From: Rhodospirillales bacterium
GTDB taxonomy: Bacteria > Pseudomonadota > Alphaproteobacteria > Rhodospirillales > 2-12-FULL-67-15
Direction of reading: 5' to 3'
Assembly (NCBI GenBank): GCA_016872535.1
Contig: VGZQ01000002.1
Coordinates: 9,514 to 73,513, forward strand
DNA length: 64,000 nt
Position numbers and translations under genes: made by a program. Below the pieces are notes generated by a model that was not told the origin of the DNA, ran no database searches, and worked only from the letters and a program-made list of their open reading frames with translations. This document shows positions 3,992-24,575 of this stretch, piece after piece; positions within the stretch are counted from its first letter, which is position 1; every line of letters begins with the position of its first letter.

Positions 3992-5239
3992 TTAGTCGGC
4001 GTCGAGACCGTAGGCCGAATGCAGCGCGCGGACGGCGAGTTCGGTGTATTCCTCGGCGATCAGAACGCTGATCTTGATTTCCGACGTGGTGATCGCCTGG
4101 ATGTTGATGCCTTTCTCGGCGAGCGCGCGGAACATGCCGAGCGCGACGCCGGCGTGGCTGCGCATGCCGACGCCGATAACCGAGACTTTGACCACGTTCT
4201 TGTCTTGGATCAGCCCGGCGTAGCCGAGGTCCTTCTTGCGCGCCTCCAGGATGGCGACGGCGCGATCCAGGTCCGCCTTGGTCACGGTGAAGGTGAGATC
4301 CGTGGTCTTGCCGTCGGCGGAGACGTTCTGGACGATCACGTCGACGTTGACATTGGCGTCCGCGAGCGGGCCGAATACGGCCGCGGCCACGCCGGGTCGG
4401 TCGGCAACCGCCGCGAGCGTGATTTTCGCTTCATCGCGGCTGTAGGCGACGCCGCTGACCAGGGCTTTTTCCACGATTTCGTCCTCGTCCACCACCAGGG
4501 TTCCGGGCGCGTCGGAGAAACTCGACAGCACCTGCAGCCGGACGCCCTGCTTCATCGCCAGTTCGACCGAGCGCGTCTGCAGAACCTTCGCGCCGACCGA
4601 AGCCATTTCGAGCATTTCTTCGTAGGTGATTTTATCGAGCTTCCTCGCTTTGGCAACGATGCGCGGATCGGTGGTGTAAACCCCGTCCACGTCCGTATAA
4701 ATGTCGCAGCGGTCGGCCTTGAGCGCGGCCGCCAGCGCCACCGCGCTGGTGTCGGAGCCGCCGCGCCCGAGCGTGGTCACCCGCCCGTTTCGCGTCACGC
4801 CCTGAAAACCGGGCACGATCGGCACCTCGCCCGCGGCCATCGCCGCCAGCAAATCCTCGGCCGCGATCGAGTCGATGCGCGCCTTGCTATGGGCCTCGTC
4901 GCTCATGATCGGAATTTGCCAGGATAGCCAGGAGCGCGATTTAAGGCCGAGCGCTTGCAGCGCGAGCGCGGTCAGGCCCGTGGTCACCTGTTCGCCGGTT
5001 GCCACCACCACGTCGTATTCGCGATCGGCGGCGAGCGCCGCGCCGGGGTCGTGCGCCGCGCGACCGCGGAGTTCGTTGACCCAGGTGACCAGTTGGTTGG
5101 TGACCCCGGACATGGCCGAAACCACCACCGCAACCTCGTGACCGGCGTCGCGCTCGCGCTTGACGCGCGCGGCCACCGCCCGGATGCGCTCCAGGTCCGC
5201 GACCGAGGTGCCGCCGAATTTCATCACGATCCGCGCCAT
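3992..5239 (-). CDS. lysC: Aspartate kinase
   Basis: MARIVMKFGGTSV, TLGRGGSDTSAVA, DVDGVYTTDPR, two ACT domains ending TSEIKISVLI. Start at ATG 5239. Confidence 0.97.
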   Translation of the reverse strand: MARIVMKFGGTSVADLERIRAVAARVKRERDAGHEVAVVVSAMSGVTNQLVTWVNELRGRAAHDPGAALAADREYDVVVATGEQVTTGLTALALQALGLKSRSWLSWQIPIMSDEAHSKARIDSIAAEDLLAAMAAGEVPIVPGFQGVTRNGRVTTLGRGGSDTSAVALAAALKADRCDIYTDVDGVYTTDPRIVAKARKLDKITYEEMLEMASVGAKVLQTRSVELAMKQGVRLQVLSSFSDAPGTLVVDEDEIVEKALVSGVAYSRDEAKITLAAVADRPGVAAAVFGPLADANVNVDVIVQNVSADGKTTDLTFTVTKADLDRAVAILEARKKDLGYAGLIQDKNVVKVSVIGVGMRSHAGVALGMFRALAEKGINIQAITTSEIKISVLIAEEYTELAVRALHSAYGLDAD

Positions 5240-5286
5240 GGGAGCCTTTCGCTCGTGGATGCGGGTTGCGCCGTGGAAAGCGGGGT

Positions 5287-5315
5287 TACATACTCTGTCG
5301 GCACCCGACTGGCAA
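5287..5315 (-). promoter_or_regulatory. Candidate sigma70 promoter for lysC
   Basis: Minus strand TTGCCA-N17-TATGTA; the spacer holds a GTCGG-gtg-CCGAC inverted repeat. Pattern match only. Confidence 0.35.
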
Positions 5316-5324
5316 TAAGCCGAC

Positions 5325-6266
5325 ATGGCCGCTCCCCGCACCCGCTTGCGCCCGACGCCCCGGCGCTACCCCTCGACGCGAGACGAGGACGAAATCGCCC
5401 GCTTCGAGGCCGACGCCGGGGATTGGTGGCGATCCGACGGCGCCTTCGCGGCGCTGCACCGCCTCAACCCGGTCCGCATCGCCTTTATCCGCGACGCCGT
5501 CTTGGCGCACTTCGGGCGCTCCGGTAGGGGCGCGTCATCCAAATATGCGCGCGGGGATTCGCCCGCGCGCCCGTTGAAGGGCCTCGACGTGCTCGATGTC
5601 GGCTGCGGCGGCGGCATCGTGTGCGAGCCGCTCGCCCGGCTCGGCGCGCGCGTGACCGGGATCGACGCCGGCGCCGACAACGTGCGCGCAGCCGCCCTGC
5701 ACGCCCGCGCCTCGCGTCTCGACATCACCTATCGCACCGCCGCGCCCGAAGACTTGATTCGCGACAAGGCCCGCTTCGACGTCGTGCTCAACATGGAGGT
5801 GATCGAGCACGTCGCCGAGCCGGGCGCGTTCGTCGAAACCTGCGCCGCGCTGGTGCGGCCGGGCGGGCTGATGGTGCTCGCCACCCTCAACCGCACGCTG
5901 AAGTCGCTGCTGCTCGGCAAGATCGCGGCGGAATACGTGCTCGGCTGGATACCGCCCGGTACCCACGATTGGAGCAAGTTCGTCCGGCCGGACGAACTGG
6001 CGGGCATGCTTGCGAACGCGGGGTGCGTCGCCATCCGCCGGGCGGGTGTCGCGTTCGATCCGTGGCGGGGCGAATGGCGTCTCGCCGACGATCTCGGCGT
6101 CAATTACATGATGGCGGCGGCGAAAGAGAGAAAGCGCGATCCAGCGCGGCGGCGCGGGCCGGCGCGGCCTGTTCAGCTGTCGCGACGGGGACGGCCCGGC
6201 AGGGGAAAAACCTCAATGCCCTCGTCGTCGAGGCGGCGGGTGTCGTCCGGGCTGGCCTCGCCGTAG
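5325..6266 (+). CDS. ubiG: Ubiquinone biosynthesis O-methyltransferase, with 17-aa insertion and extended C-terminus
   Basis: EIARF...WW...LHRLNPVRIAFIR, VLDVGCGGG, EVIEHV, GTHDWSKF, NYMM; divergent from lysC as is usual in Alphaproteobacteria. Confidence 0.93.
   Translation: MAAPRTRLRPTPRRYPSTRDEDEIARFEADAGDWWRSDGAFAALHRLNPVRIAFIRDAVLAHFGRSGRGASSKYARGDSPARPLKGLDVLDVGCGGGIVCEPLARLGARVTGIDAGADNVRAAALHARASRLDITYRTAAPEDLIRDKARFDVVLNMEVIEHVAEPGAFVETCAALVRPGGLMVLATLNRTLKSLLLGKIAAEYVLGWIPPGTHDWSKFVRPDELAGMLANAGCVAIRRAGVAFDPWRGEWRLADDLGVNYMMAAAKERKRDPARRRGPARPVQLSRRGRPGRGKTSMPSSSRRRVSSGLASP
5516..5570 (-). repeat. Palindromic element inside ubiG (antisense orientation)
   Basis: GCGCGCGGG-GATTCG-CCCGCGCGC at 5547-5570. 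The reverse complement of 5516-5570 matches 9986-10040 at 47/55 positions without gaps (hand count). Confidence 0.85.
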
Positions 6267-14946: not shown

Positions 14947-15420
14947 TCAGGGCGCCCGTGGCGACCGGCGGGCCGCCCAAAAGCAGAACGCCGGAATGGC
15001 GATCCATTGCAATAACGGCGTAAGACCGGTCCCCCACGGCGGCACCACCGGCATCGCCTCGGCATAAGCCCAGCTTTGGCGCACCACGGTGTTGAGCCAT
15101 TCGCTGTAGATCGTGTAGGCGATTCCGGCGGTGACGGTCACGGCGGCGACCGTGCCGAACCGCTCCGCCGGCCAGCGGGACCGGCCGCACGCGACCAGCG
15201 CCAAGGCCAACGCCGCCGCCGCGATGCCGAGATCGCCGGCGGTGCAGTGAACGACCGCCCACGCCATTTCGCCGGGCGAGGCGGTCGTCCACAGAGTGTA
15301 GAGCGGCAGCTGCGCGGATTCCCAAACGAGATGGCCGACGGCCCCCGCCGCCAGATAGCGGCGGAAAGCCGCCAGCCAGTTCGCCGGCGAATCCAAAGTC
15401 GTCGCCATCCGTATCATCAA
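14947..15420 (-). CDS. Hypothetical multi-pass membrane protein
   Basis: About four hydrophobic segments; HLVWESAQLPLYTLW, VVHCTAGD, YSEWLN, SWAYAEAMPVVP..GTGLTPLLQW. Resembles uncharacterised proteins I associate with metal-resistance clusters. Confidence 0.7.
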   Translation of the reverse strand: MMIRMATTLDSPANWLAAFRRYLAAGAVGHLVWESAQLPLYTLWTTASPGEMAWAVVHCTAGDLGIAAAALALALVACGRSRWPAERFGTVAAVTVTAGIAYTIYSEWLNTVVRQSWAYAEAMPVVPPWGTGLTPLLQWIAIPAFCFWAARRSPRAP

Positions 15421-15435
15421 AGGCCTCCCGGCACT

Positions 15436-15891
15436 TCACCTTCCGATGTCGATCACGTGCTGAAAGGTTCCATCGGGAAGGCGAATATCGATTCGCCACC
15501 GCCCGGACATGGTGACCGGTCCCGTCGCGCGATACACGCCGGGCGCCAGATGTTCGACCGTCGCACGGGTTGGAGGCATCGCATGCCCGACCATTTCAAA
15601 ACCGACATCGACCCGGGCATCTTTCGGCATGGGGCCATTGTTTCGATCCTGGACCTGGAATTCGATGCGGACTATGCCCATCGGCGTCTCGATCAGGCGC
15701 CCGCGCACGGTCCACGCCGGGGTCCGCCCCTCGAAGGTGCCGGCGGCAGCAATGGTCCCGAGCGCTGGCGCGTTCGGCCGGCCGGCCGACGAACCGCTGC
15801 CGTCCCCGAAAAATAGGACAACGGCAAGAAAGCTTCCGGCCACCGCCAGAATTAATCCGAAGACGATGAAGAAGAACGCTCGCGACAGCAT
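15436..15891 (-). CDS. YtkA/FixH-like exported protein
   Basis: N-terminal TM anchor, then FEMVGHAMPP and GVYRA...MSGRWRIDI, typical of the YtkA-like Ig fold. Confidence 0.75.
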   Translation of the reverse strand: MLSRAFFFIVFGLILAVAGSFLAVVLFFGDGSGSSAGRPNAPALGTIAAAGTFEGRTPAWTVRGRLIETPMGIVRIEFQVQDRNNGPMPKDARVDVGFEMVGHAMPPTRATVEHLAPGVYRATGPVTMSGRWRIDIRLPDGTFQHVIDIGR

Positions 15892-15969
15892 TGGTCTACC
15901 CGCTCGCAATCTTTGCCGGATTCGGGGCCACCCGGCTATGGCCGCGTATCCGCGGGGTCGCGCCCGACC

Positions 15970-16767
15970 TCAAGGCGGCGCCGCCCACGCATTATCCTGT
16001 TGACCGGATTTTCCCAGGCACTCGTAACGCCAGATCGCCGCCGGCGGCAAGTTCAGCCATATATGGTCCGCACGGATGACTTTCAATTTCAGCCGCCGAA
16101 TGATCGGTTCGGAAACCGGCGGAAACGGGCCATATGTAAACTGGATGAACGGTCCTTCGGTCGCCATCAACCGAAAAGCGGATTTCAGGATCGCGCCCTG
16201 CTGACGGATGCTCATGAACAAAAACGGCAGACTGGACACGACGGCGGCAGCCCGGGTCACGCCTGCCTCCCGTGCAATCTTCCCGAGTCGCGACGCGTTG
16301 CTTTCGACGACATGAGCCCCTCGGAAACGGCGGCGCAGATGTTCCGCCATGCGACTGTCGAACTCCACGATCAACATCCGCTCCGGCCGAACGCCGGAAT
16401 TGATGAGTGCTTCCGTCACCGACCCCGTTCCGGCGCCCAATTCGACGATCGTGCCCCTGGTTCGCCCGTCGATCTGCCGCGCCAGCGCCTCGGCGAGCGG
16501 ACGGCCGCTGGGTAAGACCGAGCCCGTGCGCAGCGGGTTGCGGAACCAGCGGGACAAGAACAGCCAAGCCGGAACGGCCAGATCGGTCATCACGCCGTTT
16601 CGAACCGACGCCAGCGGCATTCCATCGACAGCTTGCGCCGTCATGTCTTGTACTCGACGGTCGTAATCATGTCGGCCGCCATGTGGCGCGGGTTGTGGTA
16701 ATGGAGCGCCCGGTGCCGCGGTAGCAACGGGCGAGGCCAAGAACTGAGGGCGGGAAAGCGTGGTCAT
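15970..16767 (-). CDS. pmtA: Phospholipid N-methyltransferase-like protein (rhizobial PmtA type) with N-terminal extension
   Basis: FLSRWFRNPLRTGSVLPSG, IVELGAGTGSVT, VVSSLPF, FIQFTYG, WLNLPPAAIWRY; GGGAG SD upstream of ATG 16767. Confidence 0.75.
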   Translation of the reverse strand: MTTLSRPQFLASPVATAAPGAPLPQPAPHGGRHDYDRRVQDMTAQAVDGMPLASVRNGVMTDLAVPAWLFLSRWFRNPLRTGSVLPSGRPLAEALARQIDGRTRGTIVELGAGTGSVTEALINSGVRPERMLIVEFDSRMAEHLRRRFRGAHVVESNASRLGKIAREAGVTRAAAVVSSLPFLFMSIRQQGAILKSAFRLMATEGPFIQFTYGPFPPVSEPIIRRLKLKVIRADHIWLNLPPAAIWRYECLGKSGQQDNAWAAPP

Positions 16768-16844
16768 GACAAAACTCCCAGCTGTTAAGAACGGCGCCAC
16801 CGGCCGACGCCGATGGCGCCCGACACCATGCGGCGCCGGTTCAA

Positions 16845-17225
16845 TCAGTCCTGGGTCGTAAGTTTGGGAGGTCGGTATTCGGGGTGGACGATCCGCGCTG
16901 GTCCAAGATCGATGGCCGCCCACCGCACGACGCCCGCTTCGTCGTCGGACACGACCGCACTTGCGCGCGGCGGTCCGGCAAACGAGCAGTGGGCGCTGGC
17001 TTCGCACTGCTGGACGATGTTGTGGCTGTTTTTGGGCAAATCGTGGTCACTCGATCCGGCAACGCCGATGACAGCCATCCTGCTCGCATCCGCTTGGGCG
17101 GACGAAAGGTGGCCGTAATGAAGGAGAACGCCGAACGCAACCAGCAGACCCATAACGGCGCCAAGCCAACGCCCCCGCGCCGGCCAGCAACCGCGTCGCC
17201 TCCTGTCGTCGTCTCCGCCCGTCAC
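16845..17225 (-). CDS. Small exported-type leader ORF 3 (CxxxxxC, C-terminal PEYRPPK); candidate stalling uORF
   Basis: GTG start; basic N-terminus plus hydrophobic segment, QQCEASAHCSF, ends HPEYRPPKLTTQD, 77 nt before pmtA. Confidence 0.6.
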   Translation of the reverse strand: MTGGDDDRRRRGCWPARGRWLGAVMGLLVAFGVLLHYGHLSSAQADASRMAVIGVAGSSDHDLPKNSHNIVQQCEASAHCSFAGPPRASAVVSDDEAGVVRWAAIDLGPARIVHPEYRPPKLTTQD

Positions 17226-17454
17226 GTCCCGATCCCTTACGTCCGCCGATCTCGGATGTGCCCCGGAAAACCCTTACGATGGTGACATCCCGCAGTCAAA
17301 ATATATCCCTGGGCCCGACGCAAATCGAGAGCCTCCGTTTACTTCCATATGCCGTGGGGCGTGTGGCTCCGTTGATCTCGCGAATTGCGAAACCACACCC
17401 CCGACTTGCCGCCGGATTTAGTCCACGATCGATATCAACCGGCGTCGCAGATCC

Positions 17455-21156: not shown

Positions 21157-21504
21157 TCAGGAAGCGCGCGGAGGGCGCAGCGGCGGCGCGGACGAGCCGA
21201 GCGGAACGAAGGTGTCGGGCGCCAGCACCGAAACGGTGGCTGGCGCGCGGAGGACGGTTCCGGACGGAATCGGCGTCACGGCCGAAAACGAGCAGCCGGG
21301 CGGGCAGCAGCGGTCGATGCCGCCAGCAGAGTTTTCGTCGCACGAACCCAGCAGGGCTTCGGCATCGCTCCCGACGTGCGCGGACGCGGAAACTATCGGC
21401 GAGCCTGCCGTTTCGTGCCCGGGCGCGGCAACGCCGGCCAAGCCCCACAGCAGGGTCGCGGCGACCGCAAAGGCGGAAACGATTTTACGGAACCGGCGCG
21501 ACAC
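21157..21504 (-). CDS. Small exported-type leader ORF 2 (CC-x3-C, C-terminal PPLRPPRAS); CutF/CruR-like candidate
   Basis: GAGGA SD then GTG 21504; MSRRFRKIVSAFAVAATLLWGLAG signal-like N-terminus, DRCCPPGCSF, SSAPPLRPPRAS. Confidence 0.75.
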   Translation of the reverse strand: MSRRFRKIVSAFAVAATLLWGLAGVAAPGHETAGSPIVSASAHVGSDAEALLGSCDENSAGGIDRCCPPGCSFSAVTPIPSGTVLRAPATVSVLAPDTFVPLGSSAPPLRPPRAS

Positions 21505-21668
21505 GCAAATATTTCCTCGGACGTTCCTCGCCCACGAGCGGGCGAGAGGCGTGGATAGCAAAAGCGGATTCTAAAGACAAGCCGAAAAAGGGCCATCTTC
21601 AATCACAAGCGCGAAATCCGTATTCCCGCCAAAAACTGTTTCCCATTGCAAACTCCATGGTCTTCGTC

Positions 21669-23443: not shown

Positions 23444-23830
23444 TCAGGAAACGCGCGGAGGACGCAAAGGCGGCGCGGATGAGCGGAGCGGAACGAAAGC
23501 GTCCGGCGTCAGGGCTGGAATGCCGGATGATTCGTGAAAAACGATTCCCGAAGGTGCGGCTGTCATCGCCGAAAAGGCGCATTCCGGCGGACAGCAGCGG
23601 TCGAATCCGCCGCCGTAACCGTGGAGGGAATTTCGGTCGCACGAACCCGGGGCGGCGTCGACGACGTGTCCGCCTTGCGCGGACGCAGCGATTCCGCCGG
23701 TCGACGCTATCATCGGCGAACCCGTCATTTCGTGTCCTGGAACAACTGCGCCTGCGAATCCCCAAAGCAAGGTCGCAGTGACCGCGAACATGGAAACGAT
23801 TCGCCGGATTTGGCGCGGCAGACGGATCAA
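23444..23830 (-). CDS. Small exported-type leader ORF 1 (CC-x3-C, C-terminal PPLRPPRVS); paralog of leader ORF 2
   Basis: GGAGAG SD then TTG 23830; RRIVSMFAVTATLLWGFAG, DRCCPPECAF, SSAPPLRPPRVS. Confidence 0.75.
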   Translation of the reverse strand: MIRLPRQIRRIVSMFAVTATLLWGFAGAVVPGHEMTGSPMIASTGGIAASAQGGHVVDAAPGSCDRNSLHGYGGGFDRCCPPECAFSAMTAAPSGIVFHESSGIPALTPDAFVPLRSSAPPLRPPRVS

Positions 23831-23912
23831 CTTTCTCTCCGGGACTTGCCCTCGATCATGAAATGACGGACGTTGCGTTCTGTCAAGCGCGCCCGCGAAG
23901 GACAGCCGCAAG

Positions 23913-24575
23913 ATGAGCAAATTCACCCGCCTCGACGAACGCCTGCACGATTACCTGGTCGCGGTCGGGACGCGCGAGCATCCCGCCCTCGCGCGTCTTC
24001 GCGCCGAAACTGCGACCATGCCCAAGGCGGGCATGCAGATTTCCCCCGATCAGGGGGCGTTCATGCAATTTCTCGTGCGGTCACTCGGCGCGCGGGCGTG
24101 CCTCGAAATCGGCGTGTTCACCGGCTACAGCTCGCTGGCGGTCGCGCTGGCGCTGCCCGCCGACGGGCGGCTCACCGCCCTCGACGCGAACGCCGAATGG
24201 ACCGCCGTCGCCAGGCGCTATTGGGCCGAAGCCGGCGTCGCCGACAAGATCGAGTTTCGCCTCGGCCCGGCGGCCGGCTCCCTCGACGCCCTTCTCGCCG
24301 AAGGTCGCGCCGGAACGTACGACTTCGCCTTCATCGACGCCGACAAGGAAAACTACGAGCCGTACTTCGAGCGCTGCCTCGCGCTCGTGCGTCCGGGCGG
24401 CGTGATCGCCGCCGACAACGTGCTGTGGGACGGCGCGGTGATCGATCCCAAGGATACCGACGCGGATACCGAGGCGATCCGCGCTTTCAACCGCGCCCGC
24501 CACATCGACGAGCGCATCGATCTCTGCCTGGTGCCGATCGCCGACGGGCTTACGCTTGCCCGCAAGCGCGGCTGA
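23913..24575 (+). CDS. O-methyltransferase (Methyltransf_3, caffeoyl-CoA OMT/MdmC-like)
   Basis: MQISPDQG, LEIGVFTGYSSL, YDFAFIDADKENY, GGVIAADNVLWDG, PIADGLTLARK. Confidence 0.93.
   Translation: MSKFTRLDERLHDYLVAVGTREHPALARLRAETATMPKAGMQISPDQGAFMQFLVRSLGARACLEIGVFTGYSSLAVALALPADGRLTALDANAEWTAVARRYWAEAGVADKIEFRLGPAAGSLDALLAEGRAGTYDFAFIDADKENYEPYFERCLALVRPGGVIAADNVLWDGAVIDPKDTDADTEAIRAFNRARHIDERIDLCLVPIADGLTLARKRG

Follow-up and report, generated by a model that had tools for sequence, protein, structure and literature searches.

A CutF-like leader peptide in a Rhodospirillales bacterium and the probable passage of a deleted oxidase's start codon to a PmtA-like methyltransferase

The copper-related gene cluster described here is located on a 64-kb stretch of DNA from a Rhodospirillales bacterium (contig VGZQ01000002.1). 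We refer to this whole stretch as the window; all coordinates are window-based and all features of the cluster lie on the minus strand. The cluster contains ORF3, a small open reading frame (ORF) followed by the gene of a PmtA-like class I S-adenosylmethionine (SAM)-dependent methyltransferase. The analysis suggests that ORF3 encodes a leader peptide resembling CutF of Rhodobacter capsulatus, that the multicopper oxidase (MCO) gene formerly positioned behind it was deleted, and that the methyltransferase is now read from the start codon that the oxidase left behind. We consider this account, taken as a whole, probable. That the methyltransferase has also inherited the control by the leader is plausible, with the balance leaning slightly towards it. 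The features that carry the argument are the following.

16845-17225, minus strand: ORF3, a CutF-like leader and candidate exported copper-sensor peptide of 126 amino acids (aa); start GTG 17225, stop TGA 16847-16845
17091-17225, minus strand: signal-peptide-like N-terminus, residues 1-45, with basic RRRR..RGRW, hydrophobic LGAVMGLLVAFGVLL and SSAQA/DA
16980-17006, minus strand: Cys motif C74-EASAH-C80-SF (C-x5-C then SF), candidate metal site, from alignments
16863-16874, minus strand: RPPK codons CGA CCT CCC AAA, candidate stalling site, by direct reading
16775-16780, minus strand: UGGGAG, Shine-Dalgarno sequence (SD) of the relic oxidase start; GGGAG (16779-16775) stands 7 nt before ATG 16767
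16708-16767, minus strand: relic 5' end of the oxidase gene, ATG plus 19 codons (MTTLSRPQFLASPVATAAPG), aligned with 4303-4365 of locus L001, the start of a 502-aa MCO
16705-16711, minus strand: deletion junction, from the overlap of the blastn blocks; imperfect direct repeats of ~17 nt
16641-16711, minus strand: relic 3' end of the oxidase gene, ending ..HYHNPRHMAADMITTVEYKT and stop in the old frame and reading ..PLPQPAPHGGRHDYDRRVQD in the fusion frame
15970-16644, minus strand: PmtA-like class I SAM methyltransferase in its native 224-aa form, whose ATG overlaps the stop of the relic oxidase (ATGA)

ORF3 and its leader family

CutF, the leader of the R. capsulatus cutFOG operon, has a Sec signal and, besides a CxxxC motif, ends in GPPPRL (Ozturk et al., mBio 2023, PMC9973294; bioRxiv 10.1101/2025.02.05.636593). 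The SD of cutO is shielded by a stem-loop, and copper bound by the exported nascent CutF prolongs stalling and opens this SD (PMC9973294; bioRxiv 10.1101/2025.02.05.636593). ORF3 has the size (126 aa), the Pro-Pro pair close to the stop codon and the Cys motif, as a candidate metal site, that are expected of a leader of this kind. The gene-finder call of 77 aa (P0001) starts too late and the 126-aa form is the correct one, because the N-terminus is conserved in the homologs, which are 59-65% identical to ORF3 along the full length, N-terminus included. The GTG at 17225 is preceded by AAGGGA at a distance of 7 nt. The basic stretch, a hydrophobic stretch of 15 residues and AQA/DA are conserved in the homolog alignments, the signal having been assigned by inspection only. 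Further on, C74, C80 and F82 are invariant in three alignments of the family, with H79 inside the motif, and R118, P119, P120 and K121 are invariant in the alignment of ORF3 homologs. The C-terminus reads YRPPKLTTQD, so that P119-P120 stand six residues before the end and YRPPK 5 codons before the stop.

A family profile was built from ORF3, its homologs and two paralogs in the window (ORF1 and ORF2). The search with this profile yielded 62 representative clusters of ~110-135 aa, 51 of which were aligned; direct relatives of ORF3 are few (4 clusters). The Pro-Pro pair is invariant in all 51 aligned members (51/51), is located 4-8 residues before the stop and usually forms part of RPP(K/R)L. 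Two Cys residues are conserved in at least 90% of the 51 members within the motif H-C-x4/5-C-S/P-F/L, and the N-terminus of the family combines RRW-type basic residues with a hydrophobic stretch. Scans of genome contigs and of metagenome contigs with back-translated patterns of the family found no relatives, and a search for ORF3 across the genomes of 60 relatives gave a single match that was weak and contained stops.

In all five of the further lineages examined (L001, L012/L013, L018, L050 and L051-53) the next gene is an MCO that starts 75-83 nt downstream, and a twin-arginine translocation (Tat) motif is visible in several of these oxidases; leader and oxidase together make up a module of the cutF-cutO type. 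In L051-L053 (~4046-6081) the oxidase behind the leader is 368 aa long and has the Cu-oxidase_3 and Cu-oxidase domains, the third domain being missing; here, too, the oxidase may be decaying or have been split. It is followed in L051 by an ORF of 304 aa without a family match, which was considered as a methyltransferase and proved not to be one.

Deletion of the oxidase and the origin of the fused start

The history of the locus can be read from a counterpart that still has its oxidase. In L001 an intact 502-aa Tat MCO (MTTLSRRQFL...) begins 82 nt behind an ORF3 homolog; next come the methyltransferase, with an ATGA overlap, and a YtkA-like gene. In a blastn comparison the window matched this locus in two blocks (17195-16705 to L001 3876-4365, and 16711-15423 to L001 5741-7037), between which L001 carries the 502-aa MCO and the window lacks ~1375 nt of it. 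A deletion of ~1.37 kb between short imperfect repeats has thus removed the body of the oxidase in this genome. What is left of the 5' end has a changed Tat motif (SRRQFL to SRPQFL). At the other end, the relic ORF 16641-16727 retains the ~24 last oxidase codons in the old frame, where the copper ligand HCH reads HYH. The remnant did not pass as a Tat MCO, for which three cupredoxin domains, copper ligands and a twin-arginine signal were looked for, and is a relic rather than a gene.

An assembly artefact was rejected as the cause of the missing segment, since the 1.9 kb of window 15400-17300 are 100% identical in seven independent contigs (L004-L010) that come from separate runs and projects, namely two JGI metagenomes and at least 4 SRA runs. 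Accordingly, the deletion is genuine and has become fixed in the population, and the complete identity of the seven contigs points to a population that is very clonal and widely sampled.

The frame is open from ATG 16767 down to 15970 and comprises 265 aa; matches to the PmtA and OlsG models do not begin before residue 68-70. A preliminary description of this DNA had taken the residues in front of the enzyme core for an N-terminal extension of about 55 aa that belonged to the methyltransferase. Its first 41 residues are in fact oxidase relic, as appears from the blastn blocks and from the GC content at third codon positions (GC3), which for the second half of the extension amounts to 0.33 when read in the fusion frame and to 0.85 in the old MCO frame, real genes in this region having 0.71-0.86. 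The same description had assigned UGGGAG to the methyltransferase as its SD. This was correct in that UGGGAG opens a frame of 265 codons into the enzyme; by origin, however, it is the SD of the relic oxidase start. The claim that the device evolved for the methyltransferase has to be abandoned, given that the relatives have a Tat multicopper oxidase as the next gene.

The native start of the methyltransferase at ATG 16644 is preceded by a weak GAG only, whereas the relic ATG 16767 has GGGAG at 7 nt. Because the native ATG lacks a good SD and formerly depended on coupling, translation of the enzyme (and by way of it that of the YtkA-like gene) now most likely begins at the relic start, the enzyme being made as a fusion of 265 aa.

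Two other lineages, L011 and L014, are also without the oxidase. On either side of the junction L011 shares 89-91% identity with L001 but only 77-79% with the window, and it has a deletion of the same length at the same repeat. As L011 is far closer to L001 than to the window, its deletion is an independent event. L014 has different junctions: ~1327 nt were lost inside the oxidase and a further ~129 nt comprised the end of the oxidase and the first ~20 codons of the methyltransferase, including the native start, so that the enzyme there has no other start than that behind the leader. In each of the three deletion forms the leader has been retained together with its structured spacer, SD and ATG, and reading from this ATG continues in frame into the methyltransferase. 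In view of this common outcome and of the missing native start in L014, it is plausible that the methyltransferase is translated from the start that the leader controls; such control would have been inherited by accident, with copper dependence predicted at most. The Tat motif is degenerate both in the window (RP) and in L014 (HRRFS), which fits a SAM-dependent enzyme that must stay in the cytoplasm.

Masking of the Shine-Dalgarno sequence

The RNA structures were all obtained in silico. Three further features are of importance here.

16865-16870, minus strand: CUCCCA within the RPPK codons, the anti-SD of the preliminary description, by direct reading
16851-16865, minus strand: anti-SD segments in the minimum free energy (MFE) fold of the window, AAACU (16865-16861) and CCCAG (16855-16851), by folding
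16789-16842, minus strand: GC-rich hairpins of the intergenic spacer, inside the anti-SD:SD helix, by folding and RNAalifold

A consensus fold of the five lineages with RNAalifold gave a closing helix between CAAACUCC and GGAG-UUUG. The former corresponds to the Lys-Leu-Pro codons directly after the Pro-Pro pair, the latter to the SD and its spacer; in other words, a family-wide anti-SD (AAACUCC) lies directly 3' of the Pro-Pro codons and pairs with GGAGUUU. The hairpins inside the closing helix are kept in the five lineages, and four of their pairs show compensatory changes. In the distant L018 and L050 the same positions pair via GGUUUC:GAGACC and CUCCUC:GAUGGAG. L051 fits less well, the codons after Pro-Pro being predicted to pair just upstream of the SD and not with the SD itself. 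Overall, the predicted masking of the next SD by the codons just 3' of Pro-Pro is conserved by covariation in most of the lineages examined. The earlier suggestion that stalling on RPP exposes the SD is supported with respect to the predicted masking by codons adjacent to Pro-Pro, which is conserved and covaries; the anti-SD of the family lies 3' of the RPP codons rather than within them.

In the window the 77 nt from the ORF3 stop to ATG 16767 are GC-rich and form nested hairpins. Folding of 16885-16750 gave an MFE of -52 kcal/mol (-52.0; z = -1.95 versus shuffles). The G residues of the SD are paired with a probability of ~1.0 in the ensemble, the main partner being CCCA 16855-16852 (73-75%) together with AAACU 16865-16861. 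The tail of ORF3 has diverged here from KLPI to KLTTQD, and the new CCCAG:CUGGG pairing needs both the change in the tail (ACC CAG) and an A-to-G change in the SD (CUGGGAG). This suggests that, in the modelled fold, the masking of the SD has been maintained in the window through new pairs.

By analogy with CutF of R. capsulatus the device could work as follows. In the resting mRNA the codons beside Pro-Pro would pair with the SD of the next cistron across the GC-rich hairpins. Copper would bind the emerging ORF3 peptide in the periplasm and prolong the pause of the ribosome at Pro-Pro, and the paused ribosome would cover the anti-SD and free the SD for initiation downstream. The comparisons assign the device to a Tat-exported, CutO-like MCO, behind which the relatives have the translationally coupled PmtA-like methyltransferase and the YtkA-like protein. 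Of this oxidase the deletion left the SD, the ATG and 20 codons, which the out-of-frame 3' piece of the same gene connects, in frame, with the methyltransferase.

The anatomy of ORF3, with its signal-like N-terminus, Cys motif, Pro-Pro within the last 10 residues, short structured spacer and masked SD, supports the assignment to the CutF type of exported arrest-peptide leaders. ORF3 shares with CutF the small size (<150 aa) of an exported peptide with a Cys motif, export being predicted for ORF3, and the prolines, basic residue and Leu just before the stop (GPPPRL-stop in CutF, YRPPKL..stop in ORF3). Also common to both are the short spacer with a stem-loop that masks the SD of the next gene and, in the relatives of the ORF3 locus, a Tat multicopper oxidase as that gene. 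The differences are also clear. ORF3 has no Pfam DUF2946 match, C-x5-C(SF) replaces CxxxC and RPP replaces PPP, and the ORF3-type anti-SD lies inside the last codons of the leader. Moreover, the window has lost the oxidase, and the start under control is joined to a methyltransferase, so that the target is not a metal-homeostasis gene, and no CutG-type chaperone follows ORF3, its neighbours being the methyltransferase and the YtkA-like gene. ORF3 is a rare additional member of the known CutF-like class and, by analogy, would work like CutF.

The relation to other leaders is more distant. CopL of Xanthomonas/Stenotrophomonas and CruR of Bordetella pertussis (bp2923; PMC9426467) are likewise cis-acting upstream ORFs with Cys/His motifs, Pro-rich ends and copper-dependent expression of the next gene. 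However, CruR acts through Rho-dependent termination, independently of its signal sequence and with a spacer of 162 nt (PMC9426467), and CopL precedes copA. SecM, MifM, VemP and the RAPP-type ApdA/ApdP resemble ORF3 in having a C-terminal arrest motif that is coupled to export and in unmasking a downstream SD by stalling, but they sense the export machinery and not a metal. RAPP has been reported as the motif that arrests ApdA/ApdP-type peptides. True DUF2946 proteins of the same bacterial class end in RAPP, whereas the ORF3 family ends in RPP(K/R). More specifically, almost all of the class-level DUF2946 loci (L022-L049) have RAPP or RGPP at a distance of 2-6 residues from the stop, and share ICT..G and CP(L/F)C.

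The methyltransferase, the alternatives and the evolution of the cluster

The methyltransferase belongs to the fold family of the Agrobacterium tumefaciens PmtA (9KO3/9KO5, PMC12139422). The structure 9KO3 is its sole relative in the PDB (E 7e-18, residues 37-207 to 4-171). The GxGxG SAM motif is intact (VELGAGTG), and a hydrophobic and basic stretch (WLFLSRWFRNP) stands at the place of the membrane-binding helix of the Agrobacterium enzyme. Unlike PmtA, it stays below the equivalog cut-offs of both the PmtA and the OlsG models (NF045881, 99.1 vs 250 bits; NF041658, 81.5 vs 350). Its homologs at 44-48% identity are found in dnaK-dnaJ-MTase-pyrF-dapB clusters or beside plsY, a context that fits housekeeping phospholipid methyltransferases. 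The synteny of these homologs also underlies the placement of Bradyrhizobium pmtA downstream of dnaKJ, which a literature search did not confirm. The methyltransferase itself belongs to a separate clade at 52-75% identity that is linked to the MCO and the YtkA-like gene, and the latter follows the methyltransferase in L001, L014, L015 and L018. The window's own genome (96.7% complete) contains no second PmtA-like copy at E <= 0.001 and no dnaKJ-linked housekeeping copy. The methyltransferase is a diverged paralog of the S-type phospholipid N-methyltransferases, and its conserved linkage to the oxidase and YtkA hints at a copper-related role.

The remaining features of the cluster are listed below.

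15436-15909, minus strand: YtkA/FixH-like protein (Pfam YtkA, 1.9e-7) with an N-terminal transmembrane segment and an M-x-GH-x-M motif
14947-15420, minus strand: membrane protein of 157 aa without a family assignment, not constant in the cluster
21157-21561, minus strand: ORF2, ORF3-like paralog with CCPPxCxFSA and a C-terminal APPLRPPR(A/V)S
23444-23926, minus strand: ORF1, ORF3-like paralog with CCPPxCxFSA and a C-terminal APPLRPPR(A/V)S

The YtkA-like gene and the membrane protein, both mentioned in the preliminary description, are indeed present behind the methyltransferase. A homolog of the membrane protein with 58% identity occurs in L014 (3617-4084, minus strand), on the opposite strand there and after a TlpA-like redoxin and a 152-aa gene, both of which are absent from the window. 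The 3' end of the cluster has thus apparently been rearranged between the two. Upstream of ORF3 the window encodes a Met-rich peptidoglycan (PG)-binding protein, copB, a copA-type multicopper oxidase and a cupredoxin. ORF1 and ORF2 lie upstream of the cupredoxin-copA-copB block and of an ABC1/UbiB kinase, and share with ORF3 an invariant GS.D, two Cys, the F and RPP. A promoter scan found none, and the terminator-like hairpins were weak only.

Several observations weigh against the account of a CutF-like leader whose start now serves the methyltransferase. Scans of ORF3, ORF1 and ORF2 with Pfam and NCBIfam gave no match, with none to PF11162 (DUF2946) at E <= 10, and a six-frame search of the genome with the DUF2946 hidden Markov model returned two sub-threshold matches elsewhere and none on ORF1-3. 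Among the 51 family members one matches DUF2946 weakly (E 0.006), and an hhalign comparison with 25 true DUF2946 proteins gave a probability of 83% over only 12 columns around the Cys motif. Since the model misses ORF3 and its paralogs and the other two results are this limited, the likeness to CutF may be architectural. As regards the RNA, the z-score of the fold is modest, the canonical anti-SD is weakened in the window (AAACUUA in place of AAACUCC), and with a modelled ribosome footprint the SD re-paired with downstream coding sequence. The gene callers prefer, in all assemblies, the 224-aa form that starts at ATG 16644 (P0005). Finally, the in-frame outcomes in the window and in L011 are not independent evidence of selection because the same repeat fixes the junction; counting them as two proofs of selection was rejected on this ground, and the statistical weight of the in-frame outcomes is small.

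The most far-reaching alternative is that the loss of the oxidase was adaptive and recurrent. At least three lineages would then have re-aimed a periplasmic-copper translational switch at the PmtA-like methyltransferase and its YtkA-like partner, making the methylation of lipid head groups copper-inducible. We regard this as doubtful.

Unlikely in our judgement is also the possibility of a decaying fossil, in which leader, stem-loop and relic start became non-functional after the loss of the oxidase and a 224-aa enzyme is made from ATG 16644 independently of ORF3 and copper. The preference of the gene callers, the non-coding-like GC3 of the extension, the weakened anti-SD with its altered ORF3 tail and the decayed Tat motif would all agree with this. 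On the other hand, ORF3 is intact and has all the family-invariant residues, and the SD is still fully masked via new pairs that needed changes in both tail and SD. Moreover, ATG 16644 has no usable SD, ribosomes starting at 16767 must enter the enzyme because the frame is open, and L014 is without any native start.

The literal model of the preliminary description held that the RPP codons (CUCCCA) are the anti-SD, that the 55-aa extension is a genuine N-terminal domain and that the device evolved for metal-inducible conversion of phosphatidylethanolamine to phosphatidylcholine. The complementarity itself was confirmed by direct reading (CUCCCA 16870-16865, UGGGAG 16780-16775), and it arises from two changes specific to the window, the T at the Pro wobble position and the G in UGGGAG. 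The two hexamers are 84 nt apart, and the 77 nt formerly given as their distance extend from the ORF3 stop to the ATG; the description of this spacer as GC-rich and self-complementary was accurate. On folding, the 6-bp register indeed occurs, but as a minority structure (~24% of the ensemble; -50.9 vs -52.0 kcal/mol, i.e. 1.1 above the MFE). With both strands counted, the window contains 14 copies of CTCCCA, which is less than shuffles give, and a copy within ~100 nt of a given SD has a chance of ~1%, which is not compelling alone. The pairing is not conserved: all relatives have a first Pro codon with G or C in the third position and UAGGAG as the SD. Considering, in addition, that the extension is derived from the oxidase, that the ancestral target is an MCO in five lineages and that the methyltransferase falls far under the PmtA and OlsG cut-offs, we think this model very improbable.

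The least credible alternative is a stable periplasmic or membrane copper-binding protein (chaperone or buffer) without a regulatory role, as its 126 aa, signal-like N-terminus, conserved Cys/His and copper cluster would permit, for the Pro-Pro and the RNA structure would then be incidental in spite of the invariant short distance from Pro-Pro to the stop in 51 members, the constant spacer of 75-83 nt and the covarying SD pairing. Of CutF, the closest analogue, no mature protein can be detected (PMC9973294).

The significance of the locus lies in the evolution of a gene cluster and not in a new mechanism, as the leader is of a known type. The CutF-type switch is extended by a rare sequence family outside Pfam DUF2946 (62 clusters, RPP(K/R) end, C-x4/5-C), in which the principle of SD masking is predicted to be kept by covariation. 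For annotation the locus teaches that the extension of the methyltransferase is no domain and that the 77-aa call of ORF3 is too short. With the favoured account of a CutF-like leader and a methyltransferase read from the relic start, the locus would represent a natural re-use of a regulatory cassette, in which the regulated gene is deleted, its start codon stays as an adaptor and control passes to the next gene. Should the more doubtful adaptive alternative be true, it would give CutF-type sensors an output not described before and a PmtA paralog a role in copper stress.

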